Positions 5,435-64,000 are shown, numbered from the stretch's first letter. The stretch is DNA of 64,000 nt from an uncultured bacterium (GCA_965373035.1 CBDVEP010000001.1:272-64271), one strand, 5' to 3'. Numbers and translations: made by a program. Notes: a model not told the origin generated them from the letters alone.

Positions 5435-6682
5435 CTATTTTTCTACTTTATTTCTTTTTAAAACATCAAGTGCTGCCGGGAAAGGTGATAATACTTTTTC
5501 CAGCACACCATGCAGCATAGAAATACATACACCATAATTAGTAATAGGAACCTCATGCTCTCTTGCCTTTTGTATTCGCGACAGCATCTGCCTGCGATTC
5601 AGCATACAGCCTCCGCAGTGGATAATCAATTTATACTCTCCTAAATTATCAGGATAATCTTTACCTGCATATACCTTAATATCCAAATCAGTCCCTACAT
5701 ACTGCTTTAACCATCGTGGAATTTTTACCCTCCCAATATCATCTTCCAGAGCATGATGAGAACATGCTTCCGCAATCAGGATTTTATCATCAGGTTTAAG
5801 ATTATTAATCTGAGCAGCTCCCTTAACTGCCTCAATTAAATCACCTTTATACCTTGAAAAAAGAATGGAGAAAGTTGTACATTTTATATTAACAGGAGTA
5901 TCAGCAACCATTTTTAAAACAACTTGTGAGTCACAAACTACTATGGCAGGAGCATTTTTTAAATTATTAAGTAAGACAGGATATTCCCGCTCTTTTACTA
6001 TTAAAGCAGAAGCATCATTATCCAAAGCATCGCGTATTGTTTGTACCTGCGGCAGTATCAATCTTCCTTTTGGTGCTTCCATATCAATAGGCACTATTAA
6101 TATGCAGCTGCTTCCTGAAGGTAATAAATCACCAATCAAAGGAGGCGGTGATAGAAAATCATCGGGGCAAACTTCAATGAGATATTTTTTTAAGGTACTG
6201 ACATAAAAATTTCTTTTATCCTTATCAACACTACAGCAGAGAAAAAACCTTTTTGTCTTTTTTTTAATTTTTTTTAAAAAAGTTTTTGAAGGAATTTTTA
6301 AATCAATTTTATTAATCACAATAATTAAGGGGATTTTTCGATGCTTTGCTTCTAATACAATATCTTCTTCATAATGGTTCCAGATACCAGATTCTGCAAG
6401 CAGTATCATAATATCTGCCTGGTCAAATACTTTTTTTGTTTTTTTTATTCTTTGAGCAGCAAGAGCAGATTTATCAGATAACCCTGCAGTATCCAGAAAA
6501 AGCACAGGACCTAATGGTAAAAGCTCCATTGTCTTTTCCACTATATCTGTAGTTGTTCCGGCAACAGAAGATGTTATAGCCACATCCTGCCCGGCAATCA
6601 TATTTAAAAAACTTGATTTTCCTGCATTAGTCCTGCCAAATAAAGCAATATGTAATCTTAATGATTTAGGTGTTTTTTTCAT
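5435..6682 (-). CDS. hydF: [FeFe]-hydrogenase maturation GTPase HydF
   Basis: N-terminal GTPase (GRTNAGKSS, DTAGL, NKID). C-terminal Fe-S motif CSHH...HCGGC typical of HydF. Confidence 0.75.
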   Translation of the reverse strand: MKKTPKSLRLHIALFGRTNAGKSSFLNMIAGQDVAITSSVAGTTTDIVEKTMELLPLGPVLFLDTAGLSDKSALAAQRIKKTKKVFDQADIMILLAESGIWNHYEEDIVLEAKHRKIPLIIVINKIDLKIPSKTFLKKIKKKTKRFFLCCSVDKDKRNFYVSTLKKYLIEVCPDDFLSPPPLIGDLLPSGSSCILIVPIDMEAPKGRLILPQVQTIRDALDNDASALIVKEREYPVLLNNLKNAPAIVVCDSQVVLKMVADTPVNIKCTTFSILFSRYKGDLIEAVKGAAQINNLKPDDKILIAEACSHHALEDDIGRVKIPRWLKQYVGTDLDIKVYAGKDYPDNLGEYKLIIHCGGCMLNRRQMLSRIQKAREHEVPITNYGVCISMLHGVLEKVLSPFPAALDVLKRNKVEK

Positions 6683-7608: not shown

Positions 7609-8103
7609 TTATAATTCAATGTTGAATTGTTTAACTTTTAAAATTTTCAATATTCGATAAAGTGATTCAATAGTAATATTAGTTTTGCCCTGTTCAATTC
7701 TTGAAATATCTGATTGCTTAAATCCTGTTCGTTTTGCTAAGTCTATCTGAGTCATGTCTTTTTCAATCCTTGCTTTTTTTATTTTCTTCCCTATATCTAT
7801 CAAAAGTTGGATAGGTTTATCAATAGGTTGCTTTTTAATTAATTGTTCATAAATTGTTTCCCACCATGCAAGGAAAGTAGTTGCATGTGCAGTTTTATTC
7901 CAATATTTTTTAATCTTTGGCCATGAATTAATAAATTTTTCCTTATCTATAACTGAAAAAACTTCTTCTGGTCTATCACAATGAGAAAGTAATGTAACAA
8001 TTCTTGTTAAAAATTTAGGATGTTCAGGGTCTGGCAAAATATAATTTACTGTTTCTATTTGCGCCTGCTTATTTAAATCCCAAAAATATTTCTTTAAACT
8101 CAT
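7609..8103 (-). CDS. HTH_XRE-domain protein (putative antitoxin/regulator partner of the upstream nucleotidyltransferase)
   Basis: C-terminal XRE helix-turn-helix (DMTQIDLAKRTGFKQSDISRIEQGKTNITIESLYRILKIL). 4-nt overlap with the upstream gene. Confidence 0.55.
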   Translation of the reverse strand: MSLKKYFWDLNKQAQIETVNYILPDPEHPKFLTRIVTLLSHCDRPEEVFSVIDKEKFINSWPKIKKYWNKTAHATTFLAWWETIYEQLIKKQPIDKPIQLLIDIGKKIKKARIEKDMTQIDLAKRTGFKQSDISRIEQGKTNITIESLYRILKILKVKQFNIEL

Positions 8104-14973: not shown

Positions 14974-14986
14974 AAAGAAGAAAAGA

Positions 14987-18451: not shown

Positions 18452-18473
18452 AAGGAAATTTTTATATATAAAA

Positions 18474-20133: not shown

Positions 20134-20232
20134 AACTAACAGTTAAGGAAAAGGCTGGGGCATGAGGATTAATAAAAAATATATTGAATTTATTTTAAAT
20201 GTTAATTTTTTATAAAAATTTTTAATAAAAAG

Positions 20233-20275
20233 ATAAGGGTCAACTGTTTTGAACAGTTGCCCCTTATCTTTCTTT
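20233..20275. terminator. Bidirectional intrinsic terminator between the convergent MBL-like gene and glnK
   Basis: 14-bp stem ATAAGGGTCAACTG / CAGTTGCCCCTTAT (one mismatch), loop TTTTGAA, T-runs on both sides. Confidence 0.55.
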
Positions 20276-20617: not shown

Positions 20618-20634
20618 ATCCTTTGTACCTCCTT

Positions 20635-22005: not shown

Positions 22006-22079
22006 TTTGTTTTTACCTCCTTATTTTTATCTATAAAAGGGAATTTCAGGACAATCTAAAATCCCCTTTTATTTTTAAA

Positions 22080-22757: not shown

Positions 22758-22937
22758 TTTAATAAACCTCCTTATAAATTTTAAGTATGATAAAACTCAT
22801 ACTATGATTTTAAATCTTAATAACCCATGGCAGCTTGTTTAAACAGCCACATGGTCTATTATTAACTTTGTTTGACTGGCAACACCTCCTTATCCAATAT
22901 TTTTTTTAATAATCCACATATCTGAACATGTGAAATG

Positions 22938-22952
22938 TTTCTGATGTTAATT
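22938..22952 (-). promoter_or_regulatory. Sigma-54 (-24/-12) promoter of the porin-amtB-glnK operon
   Basis: Minus-strand reading TGGCAC-GTTGT-TTGCT, a perfect match to TGGCAC-N5-TTGCW. Confidence 0.7.
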
Positions 22953-23038
22953 ATAAAGCAAACAACGTGCCAAGTCATACTTTATAACTATTGATATTCA
23001 ATAAATTATAAAAATAATTTTTTAATTAAATCATCAAT

Positions 23039-23057
23039 TTGCACTAAATTTATGCAA
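23039..23057. promoter_or_regulatory. Candidate enhancer/UAS palindrome TTGCA-N9-TGCAA about 90 bp upstream of the amtB sigma-54 promoter
   Basis: TTGCACTAAATTTATGCAA. The same arms and spacing recur upstream of nifH. Confidence 0.4.
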
Positions 23058-23489
23058 GTTTATAATATTTTTAAAATCCGCATAATTAATATGCAATTTT
23101 TATATACACTATCCTCCACATTTTACAATAAAATTTATAAAATTAAACAAATTTAGTAACTTTCAGCAGAATATATTTTGGAATTAATCCTTCAGGATTT
23201 CATTACTTTAAAAATGAAACATGAGCAAGCCATTTCATCCCAAGAAGAGGTAGTATATACTCAAAAAATTTTACAAAGATAAAAAGCTTCCTTGATATAA
23301 GGAAATTATAATATATATTTGTCTTTAGGTGAAAGAAACTATGAAAGCAATATTTGAACAGTTAATTGTAGATTTTCATGGGTCTAAAATTCCACAGCCT
23401 AGTAAAAGAGAATTAACTCTTCTGTCTCTACCTATTTTAAACAAATGATATCAGGACATTTTTTATATTTATCTTATTCTTTTTATTTC

Positions 23490-27080: not shown

Positions 27081-27589
27081 GTTCTATTCTCCTTTAAAAA
27101 ATAGAATAGTAGACTGCTAAAACAAGGATTATATAAAAAGAACAATGATTATCCAACCAGTAATTGTATCACCCTACTTTTTATAACAGTGTTAAATTCT
27201 CCTTTAAGCATAGCTTCATTTACATTAGTATTTCCTTCAACTCTATCAAGTAGTCTAACAGCATAATATCTATCAGAGTAACCAATTCCCAAAAAAACAA
27301 TTTACCCTTGAAGCCCTCCTGAAATAAAAAGAGAGATATTAATATCTCTCTTTTTATAATATTAATGTAAGGATTAACATAGGAATGTCAAGTATATTAT
27401 CTCTAAATTTTGACCATTTCACTTAATGTTTAGCAGATTAAAAGAAGTTGACAAATAAATACTAATAGTATTAATGAATTAAAAAACAAGTTAAATGATT
27501 GATTGTAAATATTTCATTCCATCAGAAGAATATACAGCGATGAAACAGCAGATTGTTATGCAAAAAGATATTACAAAAATAGTTACCTG

Positions 27590-36039: not shown

Positions 36040-36915
36040 CTATCCCATTGATCCCATTGTAGCAAAACTAAAAATTTCATTAAAATGAATCCTGGGCAAT
36101 TTCCCGCGGCACATAAATATTGTAGAACTTATAATTATAAAATTGTGTCTGGTTAATATCTTTTTTGCTGTTTTGTTTGTTGAAGGGATATCTAAAAATA
36201 TTTTTTTTCCGGATTTCAAATTTGAAAGAGAAGAAACAAATAGTTTTTCAGCTATATCTTCATCTCCTCCTTTTAATTCCCATGGTCCTATGGTAATTAT
36301 TTTACCTGTATTTTTATACATTATAAATCCATGAGAATTTGGATAGAATAAAGAATTATGCGAAGATGAAAGCCGGAAAATTAAAGAACCCCTTTCATCT
36401 CTCCATAATGATGTATCTAACTTTATAAAACGTGTTGTCTCAGGAATAGTTTCCTGTAGAATTGCTTTACTATTTTTAGATTTTTTTGACCTGCCCTGCC
36501 AACGGTTTATTTGCATAACTTTTTTAAATCCAAATTTTTCATATAATCCTTTTGCTTTTAAGGCAGCATTTAAATAAATCTGCTTTTTTTTCATTTTATC
36601 CAAATACTCAATGGCACTTGATAAAAGTTTTTTGCCTATAGCCTCTCCACGATGTTCTTTAGCAACAATTAAATTACCTATCCACGAACTTTTTGCATAA
36701 CTAAAAGTCATAACAGAACCAATAACTTTTTTATTTTTAACACAAACAAAACAACCTAATGGATTAAATTCAAGAAACATTTGAAATTCAACTATATCAG
36801 ATATCCAGCCCTCTTTAGCTGTTATTTGTAAAATAGCTGGCAGATCTTTTTTTGTCATATATCTGATTTGCATAGTTTTTTCCTTACTTTCCTTATTATT
36901 GAAACTATTGAACAA
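36040..36915 (-). CDS. GNAT-family N-acetyltransferase (tandem acetyltransferase-like domains), last gene of the nif-linked minus-strand cluster
   Basis: ..IGKKLLSSAIEYL.. acetyl-CoA-binding-like motif. Its C-terminal fragment is duplicated at 16330-16565. Confidence 0.5.
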   Translation of the reverse strand: MFNSFNNKESKEKTMQIRYMTKKDLPAILQITAKEGWISDIVEFQMFLEFNPLGCFVCVKNKKVIGSVMTFSYAKSSWIGNLIVAKEHRGEAIGKKLLSSAIEYLDKMKKKQIYLNAALKAKGLYEKFGFKKVMQINRWQGRSKKSKNSKAILQETIPETTRFIKLDTSLWRDERGSLIFRLSSSHNSLFYPNSHGFIMYKNTGKIITIGPWELKGGDEDIAEKLFVSSLSNLKSGKKIFLDIPSTNKTAKKILTRHNFIIISSTIFMCRGKLPRIHFNEIFSFATMGSMG

Positions 36916-48045: not shown

Positions 48046-48968
<923 letters not shown>

Positions 48969-48985
48969 CTTTCAAATATTATAAA

Positions 48986-49000
48986 GCAATTACTATGCCA
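48986..49000 (-). promoter_or_regulatory. Sigma-54 promoter of the nif operon
   Basis: Minus-strand TGGCAT-AGTAA-TTGCT. Flanks TATGACTTGGCA..TTGCTTTATAAT shared with the amtB promoter. Confidence 0.65.
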
Positions 49001-49068
49001 AGTCATATTTTATAATTTGTTTATAATTAAATGATTATAGAAAAGATATTTATGTAGAAATGATGTTG

Positions 49069-49087
49069 TTGCACAATATTAGTGCAA
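49069..49087. promoter_or_regulatory. Candidate enhancer/UAS palindrome TTGCA-N9-TGCAA upstream of the nifH sigma-54 promoter
   Basis: TTGCACAATATTAGTGCAA about 70-90 bp upstream of the -24 element. Confidence 0.4.
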
Positions 49088-49307
49088 GTAGTTTATTTGT
49101 AAAATATATGCATAATTAATGTTCATATATATATTTATACAGAAGATTCTCCGGCTCCTTACAAATTTTTTTAATATTATTTATTAATACTGCCTTAAAT
49201 AAAAAAATATGATATTAATACTGTTATAAAAGAAGTGAAATTTTTATTAGAAATATTTTTTTAAGGGATTGGGAAGAAATAAAATCACATTTATTAACAT
49301 TTTTTCC

Positions 49308-50187: not shown

Positions 50188-51321
50188 TTAAATTTTCTTC
50201 TCATATATCCTGTATTTTTTATAAATTTTTCCACCTAAATCCTGATCAAACTTGTTTATTAAATAATTATCTTCAAGATTCCAGCCGAGTTCGCACCATT
50301 CATAGCCTAATTGATAACAGGCTTTTTCAGTTTCATAATATAAAACAGCAATAATACCTTTACCTCGCCATTCTTTTTTTACACCACCGATTAATGAACG
50401 AATACCTTTTATTTTACGCTTATAATATAAATATTTAAGTATTCCCAGTATTCCTAATTTGCCATTTAAATGTTTCAAAACCTGATTTATATCAGGCACT
50501 GTAATAGCAACACCTATTGGTTCTCCATTAACTTCAGCAATTACACAAAGTTCAGGGTCAACAAACGGTTTCATTTCTTTAGCTGCTAAATTAAGTTCTT
50601 CTTCAGTCATTGGCACAAATCCCCAGTTTTTCTCCCATGCTGTATTGTATATATCTTTTAATATCTGCATGTCCCGGTTAAAATATTTCATTTCAAAAGG
50701 TCTTACTTTTACGCCTGTTCTTTTTTTAATAATGTTAACCATTCTCTCTATTCTTTCGGGTATGCCGTCTTTTGCATATTTTATTAATGCATACAAATCC
50801 TTTGCTTTTCTAAATCCACTTTTTTCCATTAAATCAAGATAATATTTATGTGTATATGGCATCACAATAGTAGGATCATAATTAAAACCTTCTAATAAAA
50901 AGGCACACTCATCATTTATACTTGGATTAAATGGTCCCATTATTAAATTAAAACCTCTTTTTATGTTCCATTCAATAGCAGCATCTAATAATTTTTTTGT
51001 TGCTTTTAAATCATTAATAGATTCAAAGAAACCAAAAAACCCAGTCTTTGTTTGATGAAGTTTATTATAAGTATAATTATCTATTGCAGCAATTCTGCCA
51101 ACAACTTTATTATTTTTTACTGCCAGAAATAAATCTCTTCCAGCATGTTTCCAGAAGGGGTTCTTTTTAATGTTAAGCAGATGTCTGATTTCATTTTTAA
51201 GGTGTGGTACCCAGTGAGGATTATCTTTATAAAGTTTGTAAGGTAATTTTATGAATTCTTTTAAATCTTTGTTTGATTCAACTTTTCTAATAACTACATT
51301 TCCTGAATTTTTCATTCTCAC
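50188..51321 (-). CDS. Hypothetical protein, possible GNAT/FemAB-like acyltransferase fold
   Basis: ~377 aa with no firm motif. Family call tentative. Confidence 0.25.
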   Translation of the reverse strand: MRMKNSGNVVIRKVESNKDLKEFIKLPYKLYKDNPHWVPHLKNEIRHLLNIKKNPFWKHAGRDLFLAVKNNKVVGRIAAIDNYTYNKLHQTKTGFFGFFESINDLKATKKLLDAAIEWNIKRGFNLIMGPFNPSINDECAFLLEGFNYDPTIVMPYTHKYYLDLMEKSGFRKAKDLYALIKYAKDGIPERIERMVNIIKKRTGVKVRPFEMKYFNRDMQILKDIYNTAWEKNWGFVPMTEEELNLAAKEMKPFVDPELCVIAEVNGEPIGVAITVPDINQVLKHLNGKLGILGILKYLYYKRKIKGIRSLIGGVKKEWRGKGIIAVLYYETEKACYQLGYEWCELGWNLEDNYLINKFDQDLGGKIYKKYRIYEKKI

Positions 51322-51403
51322 ACCTCCTCGTAATTTTTTATTTTTACATCTTTTGAAAATTAATTTTTAGTATATTAATTTTTTTTTAATAATGACTTCT
51401 CTT

Positions 51404-52132
51404 TTATTTCCCAAATCTTCTCTTTCTTTTCTGATAATCTTTTATTGATTTAATCAATTCTTTCTCGTTAAAATCAGGCCATAATGTTTTTGTAAAATAC
51501 CATTCAGAATAAGCTGACTCCCATAATAAAAAATTACTTGTTCTTATTTCTCCACTTGTTCTAATGATTAAATTTGGTTCTGGTATTTCAGAATGATAAA
51601 GAAATTGGTTGAATGATTTTTCATTTAATTTTTTAATAGTAAATTCTTTTTTTTTAATAGTTTTATACATCTTTTTAACAGCATCAATAATTTCAGATCT
51701 TCCGCCATAATTAAAACACACATTAAAAATAAATTCATCATTATTTTTTGTTTTTTTAACAGTGTTTATAATTGCTGTTTTTATTGGAGAAGGAATCTTG
51801 CTCCATCTTCCACTATGTACTATTTTTATTTTATTTTTTTGAAATAATTTTAAATTTATTTTAAAATGTTCCAATAATAAATTCATTAAAAAATTTACTT
51901 CTTTTATAGAGCGTTTCCAGTTCTCTGTTGAAAAAACATAAACTGATAAAATTTTTATTCCTGTTTTCTTAAAAAATTTTATAATTTTGCCCAGATTCTC
52001 AGCCCCGGCTTTGTGCCCTTCCATTGGTGGTAGTCCTCTTTTTTTCGCCCACCTTCTATTCCCATCAAGTATTATACCAATATGTGCAGGTATGTTGTTT
52101 TCATCAATTGAAATATTAAAATAATTTTTCAT
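51404..52132 (-). CDS. uppS: Isoprenyl transferase (undecaprenyl-diphosphate synthase)
   Basis: HIGIILDGNRRWAK.. and ..SVYVFSTENW.. cis-prenyltransferase motifs. Confidence 0.85.
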   Translation of the reverse strand: MKNYFNISIDENNIPAHIGIILDGNRRWAKKRGLPPMEGHKAGAENLGKIIKFFKKTGIKILSVYVFSTENWKRSIKEVNFLMNLLLEHFKINLKLFQKNKIKIVHSGRWSKIPSPIKTAIINTVKKTKNNDEFIFNVCFNYGGRSEIIDAVKKMYKTIKKKEFTIKKLNEKSFNQFLYHSEIPEPNLIIRTSGEIRTSNFLLWESAYSEWYFTKTLWPDFNEKELIKSIKDYQKRKRRFGK

Positions 52133-52239
52133 TATTATCCTTTTTTAAAAATAAAATAATTTAATTTTTATCATTACTGTATATCTCATGATTATTTCCT
52201 TATTAAAATTAGGGTAGTATCAATCCAATAAATCATTTT

Positions 52240-53235
52240 TCACCATTTTAAAATCACAGAACCCCAGGTATAACCACCGCCAAATCCTATTAAGGCAATT
52301 ATATCACCTTTTTTTATTCTTCCTTCATTTAAAGCTTCATATAAAGCAATAGGAATTGAAGCAGATGATGTATTTCCATATCTATCAAGATTTAAATAAA
52401 ATTTTTCCATTGGAATATTTGATTTTTTAGCATTTGATTCTATAATTCTATAATTTGCCTGATGTGGGATAATTAAATCAACATCTTCTAATTTAATGTC
52501 AGCTTGTTTTATGCCATTGAGTAAAGCCTCTTTAAAAGCCCATATAGAAAACTTAAAAACTTCTTTGCCGTTCATTTGTAAATAATGTTGTTTGTTTTTT
52601 ATTGTATTTTCAGAGGCAGGCAGTTTACTTCCGCCTGCAGGAATATTCAAATATTCAACACCATACCCATCAGCTTTTATATATGATGATAAAATTTGGT
52701 TATAATTATTTGACTTTGTTAATAAAACTGCACTGGCACCATCACCAAATAATATACAGGTAGAACGATTTTCCCAATTTGCAAATTTACTCATGATTTC
52801 AGTGCTTATAATTAATACATTTTTATATTTCTCATTTTTTATAAACTGCTCTGCAATTGTAAATGCGTATATAAATCCAGTACAGGCTGCTGATATATCA
52901 AAAGCAGGTATATTTTTAGCTCCAATATTATGTTGAATTTTACACGCAGTTGATGGTAAAATCCTATCCGGTGTTAAAGTTGATACAACCATTAAATCAA
53001 TTTCATCAGGCTCTATATTTGATTTCTTTAATAACTTTTTAGCTGCTTTAGTGCCTAAATCAGATGCACTCTCGTTACTATCTGCAATTCTTCTTTCTTT
53101 TATGCCCGTCCTTTGCATAATCCATTCGTCAGAAGTATCAACCATTTTTTCTAAATCAAAGTTTGTAAGTCTTTTCTCTGGTAAATAAATCTCAATTCCT
53201 GCTATTTGACTGTTCATTTTCCTCCTTTTTTCCAT
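52240..53235 (-). CDS. fabH: 3-oxoacyl-ACP synthase III
   Basis: Active-site Cys region (..ISAACTGF..), His/Asn catalytic region, C-terminal ..GFGGGYTWGSVILKW. Confidence 0.85.
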   Translation of the reverse strand: MEKRRKMNSQIAGIEIYLPEKRLTNFDLEKMVDTSDEWIMQRTGIKERRIADSNESASDLGTKAAKKLLKKSNIEPDEIDLMVVSTLTPDRILPSTACKIQHNIGAKNIPAFDISAACTGFIYAFTIAEQFIKNEKYKNVLIISTEIMSKFANWENRSTCILFGDGASAVLLTKSNNYNQILSSYIKADGYGVEYLNIPAGGSKLPASENTIKNKQHYLQMNGKEVFKFSIWAFKEALLNGIKQADIKLEDVDLIIPHQANYRIIESNAKKSNIPMEKFYLNLDRYGNTSSASIPIALYEALNEGRIKKGDIIALIGFGGGYTWGSVILKW

Positions 53236-53251
53236 AACGGCTAAAGAATTA

Positions 53252-54643
53252 TTAAAAAAACAACTTGAATTTTAAATATATCTGGTCATCATCTTTTAAT
53301 TTGCCAAAGAATGTTTCATCAGACCCTTCAATTGCCATACAGCCAAGAGTTAATTCTGTGCTGTCTGCCGGGTAGTATGTGATTTCTGGTCCCCACATAT
53401 TGCCTGATTTCTTTTTTACATCTTTAAATTTTTTTGCTTTATTTAAATCCTTTACTCCTATTGCTCCATTTAATCCTAGTTTTAATTTTTCCTGAAAAAA
53501 TTTCATCTCTATTCTTGCAATTATATAATCCTGTGATTTCTCCTGATGATAACCCCGTTCAACAAAAAAACCATGGATGAACTGTGAATTAATGTAAATC
53601 CCGTTTTTAAATGTATAGTCAAATCCTATTGTGTATTTAAAATATGGTTCTTTATCGAGCACTGTATTTGTGTTAAAAGAAGTTGCAGTAGGCATTTCAG
53701 TTGTTGTTATAATTTTAACTTCCTTTGGTATAAAGCAGGCTGCTTCTGCCCATACTCCGATTTTAAATAATTCACCTGCTGTATCAAGACCTATTACCTG
53801 CATTTCAGGGAACTTCATTTTATAATTTGCCTTAACATCTCCAGTTGTAATTCCTGTGGCATCAATATACATTTTTTTAACTATTGGCAAATCATCATAG
53901 CCCTTGAAATAGCTCATTGAAAGATCAAAATTAAATAATTTACCTGAAAGTTTTATACCAAACATTGAATTTCCTGCTTTTTTTTCAGGCATCTCAATAA
54001 GCCCTGAAATATCCGGACTGACTCCCAACTGTTGACTAATACCTGTTTTTAAGCCATGGGTTAACATTTCCGGGTAATTAAATTCATTGTCAGAAAATCT
54101 TGATGAAGTAAAATAAGGAATCCAGATTCCCTGTAAGGATATTTCTTTTGGAAAATAGTATGTTGCCTTTATTGCAATTGTAGGTATCTTTTCACCAAAA
54201 TTAAAAATATCTGTTAAATCATCAGGATTTAAATTATCAGTTGGATTTAATTTGTCAGCAGTTCCCCATGCAATTCTTTGTTTCCCGGCTCTTAAATCAA
54301 GCTTATCAAAAAGAAAGCCATAATAATCAATATAAGCTTCCTTTAATTGTAATTCAATTGGTTCTACATTTATACGATTATTTAAATCCTGCGGGGTACT
54401 AACATCAGAAAAATTTTGATACCGAAAATTTAAAGAAGCAAATCCTGCAAGATTATCAGATACGTCTGCTTGATATTTCAACAATAAATTTTCTTCATTA
54501 TACAAGTAATTTCCTTTTTTTATTTTGGCTCTTATATCTGATTTTATCTCACCTTCAAAAGAAGTATCTGCTGAAAGAAAAATTGGCAAGAATAAAAATA
54601 TTATCAATACTATTAAGAACTTCTTCATTATAAGTACCTCCAC
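53252..54643 (-). CDS. Outer-membrane beta-barrel protein (DUF1302-like partner of MMPL exporters)
   Basis: Signal peptide, strand-rich sequence, C-terminal ..KFKLFF. Confidence 0.45.
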   Translation of the reverse strand: MEVLIMKKFLIVLIIFLFLPIFLSADTSFEGEIKSDIRAKIKKGNYLYNEENLLLKYQADVSDNLAGFASLNFRYQNFSDVSTPQDLNNRINVEPIELQLKEAYIDYYGFLFDKLDLRAGKQRIAWGTADKLNPTDNLNPDDLTDIFNFGEKIPTIAIKATYYFPKEISLQGIWIPYFTSSRFSDNEFNYPEMLTHGLKTGISQQLGVSPDISGLIEMPEKKAGNSMFGIKLSGKLFNFDLSMSYFKGYDDLPIVKKMYIDATGITTGDVKANYKMKFPEMQVIGLDTAGELFKIGVWAEAACFIPKEVKIITTTEMPTATSFNTNTVLDKEPYFKYTIGFDYTFKNGIYINSQFIHGFFVERGYHQEKSQDYIIARIEMKFFQEKLKLGLNGAIGVKDLNKAKKFKDVKKKSGNMWGPEITYYPADSTELTLGCMAIEGSDETFFGKLKDDDQIYLKFKLFF

Positions 54644-54665
54644 TTTTCTTTAGATATATATATTT

Positions 54666-55457
54666 TTATCTGCTTAAGTAACGTTTTGTGAATTTGCTGT
54701 TAGACAGTCCGGAATCAAACTTTACATCTTCAATAATCATTTTTGTCTTATGTTTTGCTTTCAGGTTATTCATTTCCGATTCTTTTGATATCCAGTATCC
54801 TTTAACTTTCTCTATTTTTTTTCTAATCATTATTTTATAGAGTTTTCCACCTTTATTATAATGTTCAATTTTAACAGGATAAAAATTGTCAGTTCTTACT
54901 TTCATAATTAATTTTGAATAATCTGTTTTTATTCCCTTCCGTGGATTAAGTTGAAGGATATAATAATTTTTTTCTTTTTTAAGTAACTTTGGAATATATT
55001 TTTCTAAATATCTTTTTGCTTCCATATCATCATAGGAAAAGTCAGTCCCTGCAAATTTAGTATTTTTTACATGAGAAGCAATTCGTCTTACTTTTTTAAA
55101 AGCAGGCAGATAAAGATACATAATATCGTTTGGCAGTGAAAGAAAAGCAATACCTTTTTGATTAGCCGGTGAAAGAAATTTTACCATTCTTTTTTCACTG
55201 CCTTTCTGAAGCATACTCATCTTTCGAATTTTTTCTTTTCCTTTTTTGTCAGTCAGGACAAGTTTTATTTTTAAATTCTGATCCTTGGGAGCATTAATAA
55301 CATCGTCAGCCTTATTAAGAATTTGCGAAGCTGTAATTTTTTTCTCCTCTGCCTGAACCTGAGAAACAAATATTATTATTAGTAATGATAAAAAAGTAAA
55401 TAACATAAATTTTTTCATTTTAATTTCCTCCTCTTTTAGATTAAAAAATTTTATCAT
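54666..55457 (-). CDS. LolA-like outer-membrane lipoprotein-sorting/carrier protein
   Basis: Signal peptide, LolA-like size and composition. Conserved position between the RND/MMPL exporter and the beta-barrel. Confidence 0.45.
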   Translation of the reverse strand: MIKFFNLKEEEIKMKKFMLFTFLSLLIIIFVSQVQAEEKKITASQILNKADDVINAPKDQNLKIKLVLTDKKGKEKIRKMSMLQKGSEKRMVKFLSPANQKGIAFLSLPNDIMYLYLPAFKKVRRIASHVKNTKFAGTDFSYDDMEAKRYLEKYIPKLLKKEKNYYILQLNPRKGIKTDYSKLIMKVRTDNFYPVKIEHYNKGGKLYKIMIRKKIEKVKGYWISKESEMNNLKAKHKTKMIIEDVKFDSGLSNSKFTKRYLSR

Positions 55458-55462
55458 TCAAT

Positions 55463-57769
55463 TCATGACTTATTTTTTTTCATGAAATGATTTTTTGACA
55501 TATTTATAAATCTTTGAAAATCACCAATAAAACCGGCTTTTGTTGCAAGGATTATTGATGGTAATAATGTGATAGCACTAACTCCTGAACCAATCATAGT
55601 GATAGCAACCAGAATACCAAATCGTCTTAATGGAATTAAATTAGCTAAAAGAAGCACTAAAAATCCCAGCATTACAGTTATTACGTTGATTAGTATTGCC
55701 TTGCCACTTGTTTCAAGTGTCCTGTCCAGTGCTTCAAGCTCGGTTTTATCTTTTTTAAATTCCTTACGGAACCGGCTTACAAAATGAATTGAATAGTCTA
55801 TTCCAATACCAATTGAAATACTTCCTACCAGTACAGTGGCAATATCCAAAGGAATTCCTGAGAAACCCATAAAACCAAAAACAACTATAAGCGTGAATAC
55901 AATTGGAACTAGTCCTATTAATCCGCCAATAAATGAATGAAGTAGAAATACAAGGCAAATAAATACCAAAATAATAGCAATAATTAAACTCTGGATTTGA
56001 CTTTGCAGCATACTATCATCTAAATGCTGATAAATAGATGGCATTCCTGTTTGAGTAAAGGTAAATGAAGATGATTTAGTTCGATTAATATATCGCTCAA
56101 TATTTTTTACTAAACTTCGCATTCGTTTTGTATTAACACTGGCAATAGTTGCTTGAATAATTGCCTCAGTTTTATCATCATTAACCAGTTGGCTCATAAC
56201 CTCTTCTCCTTCCAAAAGAAACCAGAGATTGCATACCTTGTCTTTACTATCCGGAATAACTTTCCCTTCACCCATTACATCAGACATTTCTTCGATAAGG
56301 TCAGCAACGGACTGAGAATTTTTAACATCATCAAGGGATTCTAAAAAATCTTCCATTTTTTTCATTTCTGTAAGAACAGCAGGATCCTGGATATCTCCTT
56401 TTACTAAAATTTGAATGGGAATAGACCCGCCAAATTTATTCTGCATTATTTTTTCAGTTAATCTGATACTACTTCCATGTTGAAAATAATCCAGCATATC
56501 TACTTTTCGCTGTATTTTTGGTATCCCCAGAACACTAATAATAACAATAACAATCCCGGCAGCAATAATCTTTTTTTCATTTTTTAAAACCCATTCACCA
56601 ATCTTATCCATGAATCGAGTAATCCCATCTTTCTTTTTAATATTATCATTCAAGTATGCAGTCTTATTTTTAAGGGATAATAATGATAAAACAGAAGGAA
56701 CAAAAGTAATTGAAATAAGTAACGAAAACAGAACTCCTAATCCGGCAAATATTCCAAATTCTTGGATCATGCTTAAATAAGAGCCAAAAACAAAAGCCAT
56801 GAACCCTGCTGTTGTAGTTACTGCTGCAAGTATTACAGGGATTCCAATTTCTTTTAAAGCTCTTTTTGAATGGTTTAATTTATCTTCATCTATATCTGAT
56901 TCTTCATTAAACTTGCTAATTACATGTATGCTGTAAGCACTTCCAACAGCAATAAGAATTACCGGGATAATATTTGAGATAACAGTAAGTGGAATTTTTA
57001 AAACACTCATTATCCCCAGTGTCCAAATTGTACTAATTAGTACAGAAAGGATAGGGAGGAGAACTCCTCTTAAAGTACGAAAGCTTAAAAAAAGTGATAT
57101 AAAAATTAAGAGGAGAATAAATGGAATTAGTACCCTCATATCATTCAGGATAATATCGCTGATATCTATCATCTGAAAAGGTATTCCGCCAAAATACACT
57201 TTTTCCTTTAAATTTGCCTTTTTAATTATTTCTTTTAACTGCTTTGCTGTTTCTATCTTATCAATTTCTACATTTAAACGGCAAATAATAAGTGTTGCTT
57301 TTGCATCATCTGAAATAAGACGACCTCGATACATATCCTTTGAAAGAGTATATTTTTTAAGTTTTTGAAGTTCTTTAGCTGTCTTTGGTAAAGCATATTC
57401 ATTAATAAGACGCCCGATTTCTATTCCATCCTCTCCTTTTTTAATATCAAGAACATTAGCAAGACTTGTAACATAGGAAACTCCATCAAGAAGTTTAAAT
57501 TGTGAAGTTAAATAATTCAATTGTTCAATTGTCTCTTTATTAAAAATATCATCTGTTTCAAGAGCAACCATTGCTAAAGAATTTCCGCCGTATTCTTCTC
57601 CTATGTAATTAAATAGTTTTACAACTGGATCGCTTTTAGGCAAATAACTTGTTATATCTGCATTGATTGTTAAATCCTTCAGGCAATACCCTAAAACTAA
57701 AGTAATAAAAACAGTAGTGAAAATAACTATTTTGCGGTGTTTAATCACTAATTCAGAAAACTTTTTCAT
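55463..57769 (-). CDS. MMPL/RND-superfamily exporter (COG1033-type, 12 TM with two large periplasmic loops)
   Basis: Two 6-TM bundles each followed by a soluble domain. 768 aa. Confidence 0.7.
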   Translation of the reverse strand: MKKFSELVIKHRKIVIFTTVFITLVLGYCLKDLTINADITSYLPKSDPVVKLFNYIGEEYGGNSLAMVALETDDIFNKETIEQLNYLTSQFKLLDGVSYVTSLANVLDIKKGEDGIEIGRLINEYALPKTAKELQKLKKYTLSKDMYRGRLISDDAKATLIICRLNVEIDKIETAKQLKEIIKKANLKEKVYFGGIPFQMIDISDIILNDMRVLIPFILLLIFISLFLSFRTLRGVLLPILSVLISTIWTLGIMSVLKIPLTVISNIIPVILIAVGSAYSIHVISKFNEESDIDEDKLNHSKRALKEIGIPVILAAVTTTAGFMAFVFGSYLSMIQEFGIFAGLGVLFSLLISITFVPSVLSLLSLKNKTAYLNDNIKKKDGITRFMDKIGEWVLKNEKKIIAAGIVIVIISVLGIPKIQRKVDMLDYFQHGSSIRLTEKIMQNKFGGSIPIQILVKGDIQDPAVLTEMKKMEDFLESLDDVKNSQSVADLIEEMSDVMGEGKVIPDSKDKVCNLWFLLEGEEVMSQLVNDDKTEAIIQATIASVNTKRMRSLVKNIERYINRTKSSSFTFTQTGMPSIYQHLDDSMLQSQIQSLIIAIILVFICLVFLLHSFIGGLIGLVPIVFTLIVVFGFMGFSGIPLDIATVLVGSISIGIGIDYSIHFVSRFRKEFKKDKTELEALDRTLETSGKAILINVITVMLGFLVLLLANLIPLRRFGILVAITMIGSGVSAITLLPSIILATKAGFIGDFQRFINMSKNHFMKKNKS

Positions 57770-57837
57770 ATAATAAATCCTCCTCTTTGTAATTATAGAC
57801 TAATCAGGTTTTTTAGTCGGTTTATAGACAAAAAAAA

Positions 57838-58422
57838 TTATTGTTTAATTATCCCATTAAAAAGAAGATCTAACAGCTTATCAATGCTTTCTTCAATTTT
57901 TAAGGAATCATTTTCTATTGCCCAGGGATACTCTAACCCTTTTAATGCCATAATGATAGTAAATGCTGTTAACTCTAAATCCTGGACAATAAAAATATTC
58001 TGATCAATTCCTCCTTTTAATATCGTTTTAATTATTTTAATCTCATCTTCAAAATGCTTTTTCCTTACTTTTTCAATAAAACTGTAATATTCAAGATACT
58101 CCTCTTTAAGTGCACTGTAGAAATTTGCTAAACGGTGAAGAACTGTCATTCTTGTTATAATACAAGCACGCAATTTTTTCTGGGGAGTATCTTCCTGATT
58201 GATAGCTTTTATGATTTCTTCTTTTAATACACAACTTTCTTTTTCTACTATTGTTTGAAAAATTTCTTCCTTACTTTTGAAATAGTGATATATTGAACTC
58301 TTTGCTTTATGAGCTGCCTTTGCTATTTCATCCATAGTGGTTTTATTAAAACCAAATCGAGCAAAGATACCCTGCGCTGCTTTTATAATAATTTCTCCAA
58401 CATTTTTTTGTGATTTTTCCAT
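57838..58422 (-). CDS. TetR-family transcriptional regulator
   Basis: N-terminal HTH ..FARFGFNKTTMDEIAKAAHKAKSSIYHYF... Confidence 0.8.
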   Translation of the reverse strand: MEKSQKNVGEIIIKAAQGIFARFGFNKTTMDEIAKAAHKAKSSIYHYFKSKEEIFQTIVEKESCVLKEEIIKAINQEDTPQKKLRACIITRMTVLHRLANFYSALKEEYLEYYSFIEKVRKKHFEDEIKIIKTILKGGIDQNIFIVQDLELTAFTIIMALKGLEYPWAIENDSLKIEESIDKLLDLLFNGIIKQ

Positions 58423-58656
58423 ATTTTTATCCTTATATTATATTTCGATTTATCGACTAAATTAGTCTTATGGTCTATAATATAATCCCTTTTTATTATT
58501 GTGTCAAGCTTTTTTTTAATTACTTTTATGATGGAATTAAAATTGACAATAAAAAATTTTATATTATATTTCAGTATTGGATTAAATATTATAAAATTTG
58601 TATGTAGGATTGCTTAAAAAATTTATTTACGAATTGTAGGATTAGGTTGTTGAATT

Positions 58657-60915
58657 ATGGTTAAAGATCATGTCCAATTATTATGTAATATATGTAACAT
58701 TGGTGAACTAAATCAGATATTCAGTGAAAGTACAGATATAAAAACCATCTTTCAAAAAATTATTAATTTAGTTGTAAAAAATTTAAAAGTAGATGTTTGT
58801 TCCATTTATATATATGATGAAAACACAAATGAACTTACATTAAAAGCTACAAAGGGATTAAATTCAAAATCAGTGGGAAAAGTTAAACTTAAATTAGGTG
58901 ATGGTATAGCTGGTTATTCTTTAAAAGAAAGAAGAGTAATTATTGAAAAAATCGGGAAGAATAATCCTCACTTCAAAGCAATTTCCGGTATAAATGAAGA
59001 ATTTTATGAATCTTTCTTAGCTATCCCTATTTTACGTGGAATTTCAAGGATAGGAGTTTTAATGCTGCAGCGTGATAAAAAAAATTATTTTAAAACAAGA
59101 GATATTATGGTTTTAAAAGCTGTAGCTTCCCAGCTTGCTAATCTTATAGAAAATACTGAAATGATTATATCATTGCATAAAAAAAATAAGCAAAAGGAAA
59201 TCAATGAAATAATACCTGAAAAAAAATTTATAAAAGGAAAGCCGGCTTCTGAGGGTTATGCTTATTCTAATATAATTATTCCAGACAAAGTAAGAGCTAT
59301 ACACTTCCTTGAACAAAAAAAATATAATAAATATACATTAAAAAATTTTAATAATGCTGTTAGGTCAACTGAAATTCAATTAGAAAATTTACAAAAACAA
59401 GTAGAAGAAAAATTATCTGATGCAGCTTCTCTTATTTTTACTGCTCACCTTTTAATACTGAAAGATAAAGAATTTACTAAAGCCATGACTAAACTAATCC
59501 AGCAGGATGTTAATCCTCCTCAGGCTATATTACAGATAGGAAGAAAGTATGTGAATATTTTCTCAGAGAGTTCTAATCCATATATACAGGAAAAAGTTCA
59601 GGATATAGAAGATCTTATCATTCGCTTGATGGGAAACCTTACTAAAGATATTTGCCAGTGGAGTAATGTGGAAAATCATATTATTATTGCAAAGGACCTT
59701 TTTCCATCAGACATTTTAAAACTCACTGCTGAAAAAGCCAGTGGAATTATTTTAATAAGTGGGGGAGTTACTTCCCATCTTTCTATTCTGGCACGTTCTC
59801 TTCAGATACCACTTATTATTATTGATGAGCTGTTTCTTTTAAAAATATCTGCAAATACAAAGATACTGATGGATGCAGACCTTGGTAATATTTACTTAAA
59901 TCCTTCCTCTGATATTATAGAAACATTTAAAAAAAGAAATAAAGCTCGTATCAGTCTTAAGCAGCAAAAACGTTTTGTTAAAAAAATAACCAGGACTAAG
60001 GATAATATTCGTGTGAAGTTAATGGCAAATATTAATCTTTTAAGTGATTTAAAAACAGCCTGTGAACTTCATTTAGAAGGGATTGGACTATATCGTACTG
60101 AGTTTCCTTTTTTAATACGAAGGGATTTTCCATCAGAAGAAGAGCAGTTGGTTATTTATAAAAAATTAATAGAAGGAATGCCTGGAAAGGAGATTACTTT
60201 TAGAACACTGGATATTGGCGGGGATAAAGTTCTCTCTTATTATCAAAATGCAAGTGAAAAAAATCCTTTCCTGGGAATGAGATCTATTCGATTTTCCCTG
60301 CAGAATAAAGAAATCTTTAAACAGCAGATCAGGGCAATGCTTCGAGCAGATGAGAAAGCTAAAATTAAAATCATGTTCCCTATGATTTCTTCTCTTGAAG
60401 AATTTTTAGAGGCTAAAAATATTGTTTTCAGTTGTATAGAATCTTTAAAAAAAGAAAAATTAGCTCATAATGATAAACCAAAAATAGGTATGATGGTGGA
60501 ACTTCCTTCTGTAGTAGAAATCATTGATGATTTTGCCAGGGAATCTGAATTTTTTTCTATAGGGACCAATGATTTTATTCAATATATGCTTGCTGTTGAC
60601 AGGACAAACGAAAAGGTAGCTTCACTTTATTTACCTTATCATCCTTCAGTATTAAGAGCAATTAAAAAAATAGTTGATTCTGCCTTAAAACATAAGATTG
60701 AAATTTCTGTCTGTGGTGATATGGCGCATCAAGAAAAATATATACCCTTTTTATTGGGTATTGGTATCAGAATGTTAAGTTTGGATCCTATTTATTTCCC
60801 TAAAATTCAAAAATTCATTTCTCAAATTAATTTAAAAAATGCAGAAAACCTTTCCCAGTCTATTTTAAAACAAAGTAAAATGGAAGAAATTATTTATCTT
60901 TTAAACACTTTTTAA
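58657..60915 (+). CDS. ptsP: Phosphoenolpyruvate-protein phosphotransferase with N-terminal GAF domain (PtsP / EI-Ntr)
   Basis: N-terminal GAF (~170 aa), PEP-utilising enzyme mobile domain (..GGVTSHLSILARS..), C-terminal PEP-binding TIM barrel (..ISVCGDMA..). Confidence 0.8.
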   Translation: MVKDHVQLLCNICNIGELNQIFSESTDIKTIFQKIINLVVKNLKVDVCSIYIYDENTNELTLKATKGLNSKSVGKVKLKLGDGIAGYSLKERRVIIEKIGKNNPHFKAISGINEEFYESFLAIPILRGISRIGVLMLQRDKKNYFKTRDIMVLKAVASQLANLIENTEMIISLHKKNKQKEINEIIPEKKFIKGKPASEGYAYSNIIIPDKVRAIHFLEQKKYNKYTLKNFNNAVRSTEIQLENLQKQVEEKLSDAASLIFTAHLLILKDKEFTKAMTKLIQQDVNPPQAILQIGRKYVNIFSESSNPYIQEKVQDIEDLIIRLMGNLTKDICQWSNVENHIIIAKDLFPSDILKLTAEKASGIILISGGVTSHLSILARSLQIPLIIIDELFLLKISANTKILMDADLGNIYLNPSSDIIETFKKRNKARISLKQQKRFVKKITRTKDNIRVKLMANINLLSDLKTACELHLEGIGLYRTEFPFLIRRDFPSEEEQLVIYKKLIEGMPGKEITFRTLDIGGDKVLSYYQNASEKNPFLGMRSIRFSLQNKEIFKQQIRAMLRADEKAKIKIMFPMISSLEEFLEAKNIVFSCIESLKKEKLAHNDKPKIGMMVELPSVVEIIDDFARESEFFSIGTNDFIQYMLAVDRTNEKVASLYLPYHPSVLRAIKKIVDSALKHKIEISVCGDMAHQEKYIPFLLGIGIRMLSLDPIYFPKIQKFISQINLKNAENLSQSILKQSKMEEIIYLLNTF

Positions 60916-60986
60916 AAATGATTGCTATTATAAAAATTAAAAATATAACCAAAAAAATTATGATATTTATGAAAAAAACAATAAAC

Positions 60987-61263
60987 AAAATATTGGAATA
61001 AAACTGCACATGCAACTACTTTCTTCACCTGGTGGGATACGATTTATGAACAATTAGTTAAAAAGCAACCTATTGATAAACCTATTCAACTTTTAAAAGA
61101 TATTGGGAAGAAAATAAAAAAAGCAAGAGAGTATGAGGTTCCCATCACTAATTATGGTGTATGTATTTCTATGGTACAGGGTGTATTGGAAAGAATATTA
61201 TCACTTTTTCCAGCAGCACTTGATGTTTTAAAGAGAAATAAAGTGAAAATAAAAATATCTTGA
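60987..61263 (+). pseudogene. Chimeric gene remnant: N-terminal fragment of the HTH_XRE protein (7609..8103) fused in-frame to the C-terminal fragment of hydF (5435..6682)
   Basis: Translation KTAHATTFFTWWDTIYEQLVKKQPIDKPIQLLKDIGKKIKKARE|YEVPITNYGVCISMVQGVLERILSLFPAALDVLKRNKVKIKIS*. No start codon. Junction at shared ..KKAR-E.. microhomology. Confidence 0.75.
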
Positions 61264-61333
61264 CAAGGAAATATATTATTGTAAATATTTAAGGGATTTT
61301 AAATAATATAAAGGTTTTAAAGGATTAAGGTAA

Positions 61334-64000
61334 TGGAAAAAGGATTATATAACCCAGATTATGAGCATGACAGTTGCGGTGTGGGCTTTGTTGTTAATGT
61401 TAATGGAACTTCTTCTCATCAGATTGTAAGGGATGGAGTAACTATTTTAAAGAATTTAGTTCACAGGGGAGCTGTTGGCGGGGATTTAAAAACCGGTGAT
61501 GGGGCAGGTATGATTCTTCAGATACCTCATGATTTTTTTTTTAATAAAATAAAAAAAATAGGTTTTTCCATTCCTAAAAAAGGAGAATATGGTGTTGGCT
61601 TTCTTTTTTTACCTCAAGAAGAAAAGTCCCGTAAACAGATTGAAGAGATAGTTAAAACTGTCATAAAAAAAGAAGGAGGGACTATCCTCAGATGGCGTGA
61701 TGTTCCTGTTTGTCCTGATTGTCTGGGTGAGATGGCAAGAGATGTTATGCCGTTTATGAAACAGGTTTTTGTCAGTTTTCCCGGACTTGCTGATAAAGAA
61801 TTAGAACGCAAACTTTATATAGTTCGAAAATGTATAGAAAATGCTGCTTTAAAAATGAAATATTCTATTGATGAATTTTATATCCCATCTTTTTCATGTC
61901 AGACTATAACTTATAAAGGTATGTTTGTAGCTCCTCAATTTGAATCTTTTTTCCCTGATCTTATGGATAAAAGGTTTAAAAGTGCCATGGCACTGGTTCA
62001 CCAGCGTTACAGTACAAATACATTCCCTTCATGGCCTTTGGCACAGCCTTTTCGTTATTTAGCTCATAATGGAGAAATTAATACTTTGCGGGGAAATATT
62101 AATAAAATGAATGCCCGTGAATCAACTTTATCATCAGAATTTTTTGGAAAAGATATTAAAAAATTATTTCCTGTAATTATTAAAAATGGCAGTGATTCCG
62201 CCATGTTTGACAATGCTTATGAATTATTAGTATCAGCAGGGAGAAGTGTAGAGCATTCCATGATTATGATGATACCAGAAGCTTTTGGAGTAAAATATCA
62301 TATAAGTACGGACAAACGGTTTTTTTATGAATATCATGCTGCAATTATGGAGCCATGGGATGGGCCTGCTGCCATTGCTTTTACAGATGGAATAAAAATT
62401 GGTGCTATCCTTGATAGAAACGGGCTTCGTCCTGCCCGGTATATTGTAACCAAGAAGGGTGAGTTGATTTTAGCTTCAGAAATTGGGGTGTTGGATATTC
62501 CTCCTGAAGATATTTTAGAAAAAGGCAGGCTTGCTCCCGGAAAAATGATTTTTGTTGATACTTCCATTGGAAGAATTATAAAGGATAATGAGATTAAAGC
62601 ATCAGTATCCAGGCAGAAACCTTACAGGCGCTGGCTGGAGAGAAATAAGATTGAATTAAAAGGTTTATTCCAGACGCCGGTTTCTATTAAAGTGCATAGT
62701 GAAAATTTAATTACAAAGCAGAAAGTTTTTGGTTATTCAATAGAAGATTTAAACATGATACTTTCCCCAATGGCAAAAAATGCCCAGGAACCTATTGGCT
62801 CAATGGGTGATGATGAATCCTTAGGGGTTTTATCAGACCGTCCCCAGCTTTTAACAAAATATTTCAAACAGCTTTTTGCACAGGTAACCAATCCTCCTAT
62901 TGACCCTTACAGGGAGAACCTTGTAATGTCTTTAATGAGTTTTGTAGGAAGAGAAAAGAATCTTCTGGATGAGACTCCCAAGCATTGCCATCAGCTTAAA
63001 CTTTCACATCCAGTTCTTACTAATGAGGACATGGAAAAAATACGGAATATTAATGTTAAAGAATTCAGGGCTGTTGTTATTCCAATGCTTTTTAATAGTA
63101 AAAAAGCAGGTAAAGGACTTGAAAATGCATTAACTGCTTTATGCAAGGATGCAGAGAAAAAAGTTGATCAAGGTTATTCTCTTGTTATTATCAGTGACAG
63201 GAATATGGATAAAGAAAAAGCTCCTACGCCATCGCTTTTAGCTGTTTCTGCTGTTCATCATCATCTTATTAAAGTTGGCAAGAGGCATTTGACAGGTCTG
63301 GTTGTTGAAACAGGAGAAGCAAAGGATGTAATGGATTTCGCTGTTTTAATAGGTTTTGGTGCCAGTGCAATTAATCCATATTTGGCATTTGAAACTTTAG
63401 CTGATTTAAAGGAAAGAGGAAAACTTTCAAAGGATTTAACACTGGAATCAGCCATTGAAAATTATATTACAGCTATTAAAAAAGGTCTTTTAAAGATTAT
63501 GTCAAAAATAGGCGTTTCAACTATTCGGAGTTATAAAGGTGCTCAGATTTTTGAAGCTGTGGGATTAAATTCTGAACTGGTCAACCGGTATTTTCCAGGG
63601 ACACCTTCAAGAATAGAAGGAGTGGGGCTTGAAATTATTGCTAAGGAGACTTTGCTTCGTCATGGAAATGCATTTAATAATGAAAATTATCCGGATAAAC
63701 CACTTGATTCCGGAGGACATTATCATTATAGGAGATTTTCAGAAAAGCATTTATTAACACCGGAAGCTATTGTTCTCATACAAAAGGCTATCAGGGAAAA
63801 TGATTATGATATATATAAAAAATATGCCAATTTAATAAACGAACAAAGCAGAAATCTTTATACATTACGTGGGTTATTTAAGTTTAAGAAAGGAAAGTCA
63901 ATTTCCATAGATGAAGTAGAATCTGTTGAGGCTATTGTAAAAAGATTTGTCAGTTCAGCAATGTCTTTTGGAAGTATAAGTAAAGAGGCACATGAGACAA
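61334..64000 (+). CDS. gltB: Glutamate synthase large subunit GltB (N-terminal amidotransferase and central domains; continues beyond window)
   Basis: MEKGLYNPDYEHDSCGVGFVVNVNG.. (Ntn amidotransferase Cys1), ..LVHQRYSTNTFPSW.. Open to the end of the window. Confidence 0.85.

Follow-up and report, generated by a model that had tools for sequence, protein, structure and literature searches.

A chimeric XRE-antitoxin/hydF segment between ptsP and gltB of an uncultured bacterium, probably the remnant of a second, inverted gene block

The closest described counterparts of the locus reported here are short-homology (RecA-independent) deletions, bacterial pseudogene fragments, the products of homology-facilitated illegitimate recombination (HFIR, homologous at an anchor and illegitimate at the far end) during natural transformation, and the repeat pairs of diversity-generating retroelements. 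HFIR operates via microhomologies of 3-10 bp (PMC6382021). The locus, a short segment between ptsP and gltB, resembles short-homology deletions in that colinear segments of one locus are joined over 5 nt, with no filler DNA and a loss of 2.19 kb; it differs from classical bacterial deletion end-points in being, as it appears, an old scar in an ectopic second copy. With pseudogene fragments it shares the loss of both ends, the absence of a start, the replacement of conserved residues and the presence of an intact copy elsewhere; it differs from them in that two genes are fused in frame, 53 kb from the intact copies and inverted relative to them. The likeness to HFIR products (PMC6382021) lies in a junction that uses few bases of identity and in a possible anchor, ptsP, with raised divergence next to foreign-looking DNA; by analogy, HFIR is a possible origin of the segment. 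A repeat of about 140 bp with some 88% identity to the 3' end of a gene is also reminiscent of retroelement pairs, but here the repeat is fused to an unrelated gene fragment. The mechanism to which the segment is attributed below is well known, and the segment is an ordinary instance of it.

The window, i.e., the whole stretch of DNA that was analysed (64,000 nucleotides), represents a nitrogen-metabolism supercluster (20276-48921 and 58657-64000) with amtB-glnK, glnA, a GAF/sigma-54 activator gene, glutamate-synthase-like genes, an ABC transporter, ptsP and gltB, as well as three nitrogenase-component-1-type genes and a radical-SAM gene. The closest species-level relatives are Fibrobacterota/Chitinispirillaceae MAGs, with 56% PtsP identity. 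Between ptsP and the start of gltB (61333) lie 417 bp, with the following features in and next to them:

58657..60915, plus strand: ptsP, EI-Ntr type, with GAF and PEP-utilising domains (Pfam); left neighbour of the chimera
60909..60986, plus strand: AT-rich spacer, from the end of ptsP homology to a sister strain to the start of the XRE' piece
60985..61263, plus strand: open frame through the chimera, 92 sense codons followed by a stop
60987..61127, plus strand: XRE' piece, codons 66-112 of the 164-aa XRE-type antitoxin gene (blastn, tblastn)
61123..61127, plus strand: crossover GCAAG, identical in both source genes (three-way junction alignment)
61128..61249, plus strand: HydF' piece, last ~38 hydF codons, end of the HydF_tetramer domain (blastn, Pfam)
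61260..61289, plus strand: promoter-like site TTGACA-18-AATATT (consensus scan only), 44 nt before the gltB start

A blastn search with positions 60801-61400 as query and the whole window as target returned two strong matches. Positions 60987-61127 are identical to the reverse complement of 7769-7909 at 130 of 141 positions (92.2%, ungapped, E 7e-55), and 61113-61249 match the reverse complement of 5439-5576 at 121 of 138 positions (87.7%, one 1-nt gap, E 5e-44). The remaining matches of the query within the window have E values of 0.003 or higher, and the two matches are thus far beyond chance. This bears out the initial annotation, which had described the segment as a chimera of the middle of an XRE protein and the tail of HydF and had set about 70% nucleotide identity as the limit of chance similarity; both values are well above it. 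By tblastn, the chimera, 263 bp in size, corresponds to amino acids 66-112 of the XRE protein (89% identity) and 369-414 of HydF (80%). The homology of the XRE' piece starts inside the XRE ORF, takes in the last part of the N-terminal domain and reaches ~5-8 residues into the helix-turn-helix (HTH). The HydF' piece has a 1-nt deletion near its end, and its homology stops within a few bases of the hydF stop codon; the translation still matches Pfam HydF_tetramer at positions 82-117. Absent from the chimera are the HTH (aa 108-157), the GTPase domain of HydF and the Fe-S ligands. The chimera and the source genes share identical stretches of 37, 28, 27 and 23 nt.

The fusion had been called in-frame, and the frame is indeed open over the 92 codons. 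An in-frame TAA at 60982-60984 directly precedes it, and the first ATG, GTG or TTG within it is the ATG at 61171. As no start codon occurs earlier, the open frame through the junction has no coding consequence today. The sole ORF listed in the chimera (61171-61263) encodes 30 aa, and no clear ribosome-binding site was seen upstream of its ATG. In DNA of 31% G+C an open frame of 92 codons has a random expectation of about 1e-3; given only 25 substitutions since an open parent, it is not unlikely. The promoter-like site directly after the chimera, the sole strong one in the scan, is probably the gltB promoter. In the spacer at 60909-60986, no similarity to AbiEii or to the N-terminus of XRE above shuffled controls was found, and a third, AbiEii-derived remnant in this interval was rejected, its score being equal to the shuffled mean. 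At the protein level, no further remnants of NfeD, AIM24, AbiEii, TetR or PtsP were found at either locus.

The source genes lie near the other end of the window, as follows:

5435-6682, minus strand: hydF, with HydF GTPase, dimer and tetramer domains (Pfam)
5439..5576, minus strand: resident source segment 2, the 3' end of intact hydF
6739-7509, minus strand: AIM24 (Pfam), between the XRE gene and hydF
7609-8103, minus strand: XRE-type antitoxin gene, 164 aa, Pfam HTH_3 at aa 108-157
7769..7909, minus strand: resident source segment 1, inside the intact XRE-type antitoxin gene
8100-8807, minus strand: AbiEii toxin gene (Pfam), 4-nt overlap with the XRE-type antitoxin gene

The minus-strand location of both sources with AIM24 between them agrees with the initial annotation, but the XRE and hydF ORFs are separated by 926 bp, not by about 1.1 kb. 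Of the XRE protein, 89 full-length homologues with 41-58% identity were found; the pairing with an AbiEii gene (235-244 aa) recurs in other genomes, where the surroundings are unrelated. Resident HydF matches the HydF proteins of PDB entries 5lad, 3qq5 and 5kh0 from end to end (E ~1e-108). The full-length XRE family, its pairing with AbiEii and the structure matches of HydF together identify the intact genes as original and the chimera as the derivative. The spacer between hydF and nfeD (5179-5434) contains two tandem units of ~100 nt, in each of which a conserved box, TTGTG.TTA.ATAAGAG.TGAT.A.TTAGAAACT, comes after a G+C-rich hairpin (AAAGTAGGGAAGAC...GTCTCCCCTACTTTT and TGTAGGGGAGGGTTTAAACCCTCCCTACA).

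The junction of the chimera was resolved by three-way alignment. The two blastn matches overlap by 15 nt (61113-61127), an imperfect match of 13/15 within which GCAAG is the exact identity; the microhomology proposed earlier for the junction was thus recovered, narrowed to 5 nt. At this point the XRE source reads ...AAAAAAAGCAAG|GATTG, the hydF source ...ACAAAAGGCAAG|AGAGC and the chimera ...AAAAAAAGCAAGAGAGT. The chimera is XRE-type at 61117 and 61122 and HydF-type from 61128, which confines the crossover to GCAAG, and the alignment contains no filler DNA. Relative to the source locus, positions 5577-7768 are missing, and with them the remainder of XRE, the whole of AIM24 and hydF up to codon ~375. 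A deletion of the intervening DNA had been postulated correctly, but its length is 2,192 bp rather than 2.3 kb. The minus-strand order XRE, AIM24, HydF recurs on the plus strand without AIM24, and this identity of order and orientation argues for one parental copy with an internal deletion and not for two insertions.

On this sequence evidence, the segment is probably what is left of a second, inverted XRE-antitoxin/AIM24/hydF block between ptsP and gltB, and is now non-functional. Such a copy would once have stood between the two genes. It would have lost 2.19 kb, from XRE codon 113 to about hydF codon 376 and with all of AIM24 included, by a RecA-independent short-homology (illegitimate) deletion with its crossover in GCAAG, and would also have lost everything upstream of XRE codon 66. 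The remainder would now be a passive spacer from the ptsP stop to the gltB promoter, at most forming part of the ptsP 3' untranslated region. The earlier suggestion of a duplicated and then internally deleted segment, or of a product of illegitimate recombination, is supported by the colinearity, the 5-nt crossover without filler and the relaxed constraint described next. A point against the remnant model is that the homology ends at the hydF stop codon, which is rare for a random duplication boundary.

Over 255 non-overlapping aligned bases, the chimera differs from its sources at 25 positions, with 19 transitions and 6 transversions (C>T 6, G>A 6, A>G 4, T>C 3, others 6); 14 differences are synonymous and 11 non-synonymous. 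Relative to the resident genes, dS is 0.34, dN 0.059 and omega ~0.17 (Nei-Gojobori). The synonymous share exceeds that predicted if a gene is duplicated and one copy then drifts, with P between 0.01 and 0.1 depending on transition bias; the excess is marginal and not significant once the 19:6 transition bias is included (P about 0.05-0.1). It hints at a parent copy that, during some of its divergence, may still have been a functional gene; as evidence of a functional diverged parent it was rejected, its significance being lost after the correction for transition bias.

The replacements were polarised by alignment with 19 XRE homologues and with the three solved HydF proteins. In the XRE part, all five replacements are derived in the chimera, including that of the near-invariant E82 by D. 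Of the HydF replacements, three (L->V, H->Q and P->L) are derived in the chimera and affect the conserved ...SxLHGVLE...P(F/L) stretch of the PDB HydFs, one (R->K) arose in the resident gene, and a further two are uninformative. The resulting ratio of derived replacements, 8:1 for chimera to resident genes (P about 0.02 under equal constraint, from small numbers), with conserved residues among them, indicates relaxed constraint and marks the chimera as a decaying pseudogene. As polarised here, it shows a substantial pseudogene phase under duplication or import alike. The chimera is homologous to intact genes, can encode neither parental protein and, by its substitutions, has evolved under relaxed constraint, the attributes of a pseudogene fragment; it is real and almost certainly dead. 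A template/variable pair of a diversity-generating retroelement was rejected, since the mismatches are not adenine-specific (7/25 at A; 19 transitions, with changes of all kinds) and none of the 40 sequences scanned from the window, 39 ORFs and the translation of the chimera, has a reverse transcriptase domain.

Two further strains, the sister strain (samples SRR29278628/29) and a third strain (ERZ25746724), were reached via members of clusters of at least 90% identity. The sister strain is colinear with the window over 50293-60912. Its divergence from the window (contig L081) rises from ~3-4% to ~8% at ~58448, and dS is 0.32 for ptsP as compared to 0.10-0.13 for the tetR, MMPL, TP_0789-like and DUF1302 genes. 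The sister PtsP has 760 aa, that of the window 752. Homology to the sister ends at ~60908, in the last ptsP codons; the sequence downstream differs, and contigs L081 and L082 stop there at a repeat. The step in divergence and the ptsP dS indicate a recombination tract from a diverged lineage over ptsP in one of the two strains, and ptsP with its spacer is, judging from these comparisons, a recombination hot spot. An extra gene for a 497-aa radical-SAM protein is present in the sister strain (L081, 2909-4588), where in the window the flanking genes are adjacent (53220-53249).

At the source locus, the sister strain (L086/L087) has AIM24 with 95.6% identity, but XRE, AbiEii and the HDOD response-regulator are absent from upstream of it (window 7548-10385). 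Instead, 45 nt upstream of AIM24, a copy of the repeat of window 10339-10516 / 12059-12246 is found (L087 1-78); as the sister contig breaks inside this copy, the repeat is multi-copy in the sister, too. Downstream of AIM24 (window 5179-6686), the sister strain has the hydF ribosome-binding region but not hydF itself at this position; the sequence that comes next is unrelated and terminates in a hairpin repeat. Both sister contig ends at the gap between AIM24 and nfeD carry the same 23-nt hairpin, GGTTCGGGTTTCATAACCCGAAC, in inverted orientation, which suggests that the gap may be a repeat-bounded or mobile segment. By this arrangement, both source genes are in strain-variable positions.

The parent copy may have been an intragenomic duplicate or DNA of a diverged relative. 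For the latter origin, the chimera or an intact parent block would have come from a diverged relative with the present ptsP allele, the route would have been HFIR, with ptsP as the homologous anchor and an illegitimate joint at the far end, and the 8-12% difference from the resident genes would mostly be divergence between donor and recipient; each of these three propositions is tenable but rather doubtful. The dS of ptsP (0.32, as against 0.10-0.13 at 53.2-58.4 kb, with the sharp step at ~58448 and the end of homology at ~60908) is close to that of the chimera (0.34), and together with the strain-variable source genes this would favour import. The omega of 0.17 between chimera and resident genes resembles that of real orthologues (0.12-0.17), the sister strain lacks XRE directly upstream of AIM24 and hydF after AIM24 at the position of the window, and the 5-nt junction falls within the 3-10 bp at which HFIR works (PMC6382021). 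However, it may be the sister strain and not that of the window which carries an imported ptsP, and a donor would still need the arrangement ptsP-XRE'-HydF' or a further rearrangement. Under the observed transition bias, the excess of synonymous differences lacks significance, and the 8:1 excess of derived replacements on the chimera implies a substantial pseudogene phase in any case. A donor-type XRE or HydF, which would be marked by the peptide ends of the chimera (HydF end ...EYEVPITNYGVCISMVQGVLERILSLFPAALDVLKRNKV; XRE stretch ...TTFFTWWDTIYEQLVKK...), was not found in limited searches of metagenome and protein collections.

In those searches, the DNA pattern of the junction gave 0 matches in metagenomes, and the 600 pattern matches to the chimeric peptide included no relative. 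Exact matches for the PtsP, XRE, AIM24 and FloA of the window were absent from the contig index, a search of genome contigs with PtsP returned only distant relatives (<=56%) with no synteny of gltB, hydF or XRE, and among proteins the best match to the N-terminus of GltB was at 72%, not from a close strain.

An unlikely alternative is that hydF and a preceding toxin-antitoxin cassette were originally located upstream of gltB, the HydF' piece being the residue of this native gene and the intact hydF at 5435-6682 a paralogue or xenologue in another context. Homology that stops at the hydF stop codon is what would be seen for homologous genes in unrelated surroundings, and the AIM24-nfeD interval of the sister strain is without hydF at the same junction. 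Against this, XRE would have had to come to lie upstream of hydF independently at two loci, the synteny ptsP-hydF-gltB is absent in distant relatives, and the sister strain retains the hydF ribosome-binding region after AIM24, which suggests that hydF has long occupied its resident position.

A chimeric contig, or chimeric reads from assembly or amplification that join unrelated pieces, is a very improbable source of the segment. The genome is represented in public data by a single contig of 82.85 kb, and the junction pattern occurs in no other assembly searched. However, the chimera differs from the resident genes at 27 aligned positions and by one 1-nt gap, whereas amplification chimeras would match their sources at 100%, and the 8-12% divergence means that it cannot be a mis-join of reads of its own genome. 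The 5 nt common to both sources at the internal junction are far below any assembler k-mer and cannot create a de Bruijn mis-join, which speaks against the assembly error that the initial annotation had wished to see excluded.

Also barely credible is a present function of the segment, either as a translated 30-aa ORF or as an antisense RNA that would be transcribed from minus-strand sites close to gltB and act in trans on the AbiEii-antitoxin and hydF mRNAs by way of the 23-37-nt matches. The exact runs in common with the source genes, the promoter-like sites on the minus strand (61303-61275 and 61373-61344) and the frame that is still open would speak for it. The promoter-like matches are, however, weak consensus in AT-rich DNA, conserved residues have been hit by substitutions, the ATG at 61171 lacks a clear ribosome-binding site, and the chimera is conserved in no other sequence searched. 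The Rfam search of the ptsP-gltB spacer yielded no relevant family, the RNA fold of 60900-61340 is no more stable than that of shuffles (z -0.12), and no intrinsic terminator was found after ptsP on the plus strand; all three kinds of element were rejected on these Rfam, shuffled-fold and consensus scans. If it existed, such an antisense transcript would couple the nitrogen-regulated ptsP/gltB region to a toxin-antitoxin module and to the maturation of hydrogenase, and would represent a regulatory RNA born from captured gene fragments. A plasmid or phage origin of the chimera was likewise rejected, no similarity to either being found. Two independent insertions of unrelated fragments that abut by chance are hardly to be believed, since, even with other single-gene fragments scattered through the window, the pieces have the order and orientation of the source locus, a shared microhomology overlap and similar divergence.

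The remnant of a second block, which remains the preferred reading, has company in the window, where several ectopic fragment copies with 81-97% identity were found, most of them in the toxin-antitoxin-rich stretch at 7.5-20 kb:

10339-10516 and 12059-12246: direct repeats, 188 bp, 90% identity, one 10-nt indel, flanking the DUF4143/AAA_14 ATPase gene at 10529-11854
15100-15295: second chimeric mosaic, two abutting copies joined at 15155
16374-16558: GNAT fragment, 185-bp ungapped copy (91%) of codons 202-262 (36128-36312) of the GNAT gene at 36040-36915 (minus strand)

Their presence, at similar divergence, indicates that such events recur in this genome. The GNAT fragment is located between an ORF of unknown function and an AbiEii toxin gene; its differences are distributed over the codon positions as 9:2:5 and cause 10 amino-acid changes, and it looks like a sequence under relaxed constraint. 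In the second mosaic, 15155-15295 is an inverted copy (81%) of the ptsP promoter and first six codons (58535-58673), and 15100-15155 is a copy (97%) of the promoter region (18394-18451) of the metallo-beta-lactamase (MBL)-fold gene at 18474. The ptsP promoter of the sister strain is equally distant from the copy at 15155-15295 (79.6%). The direct repeats include a hairpin rich in G+C, and within the second of them is a relic of the final 17 codons of the HDOD response-regulator gene. On one strand, the minus strand at 15.3-5.4 kb and the plus strand at 58.5-61.25 kb, the ptsP promoter/5' end, XRE and hydF follow one another in the same order. This shared order would fit an old inverted duplication followed by complementary loss; with two independent markers, it has a chance of ~1/4.

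In the third strain (L088), amtB-glnK directly adjoin the aspartokinase gene, which identifies 14097-20234 of the window as a strain-specific island. In the sister strain (L089; window 14097-23479), the aspartokinase gene adjoins the AbiEi/AbiEii pair which the window has at 23.5-24.7 kb. Among the genes of the island in the window are HEPN-MNT, an AbiEii/partner pair, the MBL-fold gene and ORFs of unknown function. At its boundary (14141-14282), just upstream of HEPN-MNT, lies a long imperfect inverted repeat with arms of ~60 nt and the core AAGAATGGGGACGGTTCTAATACTTTTT.

In annotation, the chimera should be treated as a pseudogene fragment and not as a gene. Taken alone it is of little consequence, a clean and datable trace left by illegitimate recombination in a lineage that has been poorly sampled. 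Its value is that of a marker, and with the other ectopic fragments it marks the strain-to-strain reshuffling of toxin-antitoxin islands and of the ptsP flank in a nitrogen-fixation neighbourhood. The inverted repeats of 140 bp, with exact runs of up to 37 nt, could in principle invert the nif-containing interval of 53 kb between them.

Further observations concern the regulatory regions and the organisation of the supercluster. A promoter-like motif of ~40 nt, AAAATTGACA-N17-TATATTATATTT, occurs at 14055-14100 (upstream of the aspartokinase gene), 58526-58571 (upstream of ptsP) and 15259-15295 (in the ptsP' remnant), and is conserved in the aspartokinase upstream regions of both other strains. 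This motif may represent a promoter or operator that nitrogen-related genes have in common, and not a copied fragment. At ~58400-58660, the orientation of genes and the GC skew change sign, and the cumulative GC skew has its minimum at ~58 kb; this could reflect a replication origin or coding-strand bias, and no dnaA was seen. In the spacer downstream of glnA, 27455-27495 is a 41-nt copy (95%) of 25244-25284, an internal stretch of the second DUF4143 ATPase gene (24806-26047). The upstream regions at 22950-23105 (before a 225-aa ORF) and 48978-49134 (before the 291-aa ORF at 48046-48921, which precedes the nitrogenase-like genes) are ~70% similar. Both contain paired TTGCAC/TGCAAG boxes with a spacing of ~8-9 nt, forming the near-palindrome TTGCAC...GTGCAAG in 48978-49134, and these boxes may be binding sites of the sigma-54 activator encoded at 29353-31392.
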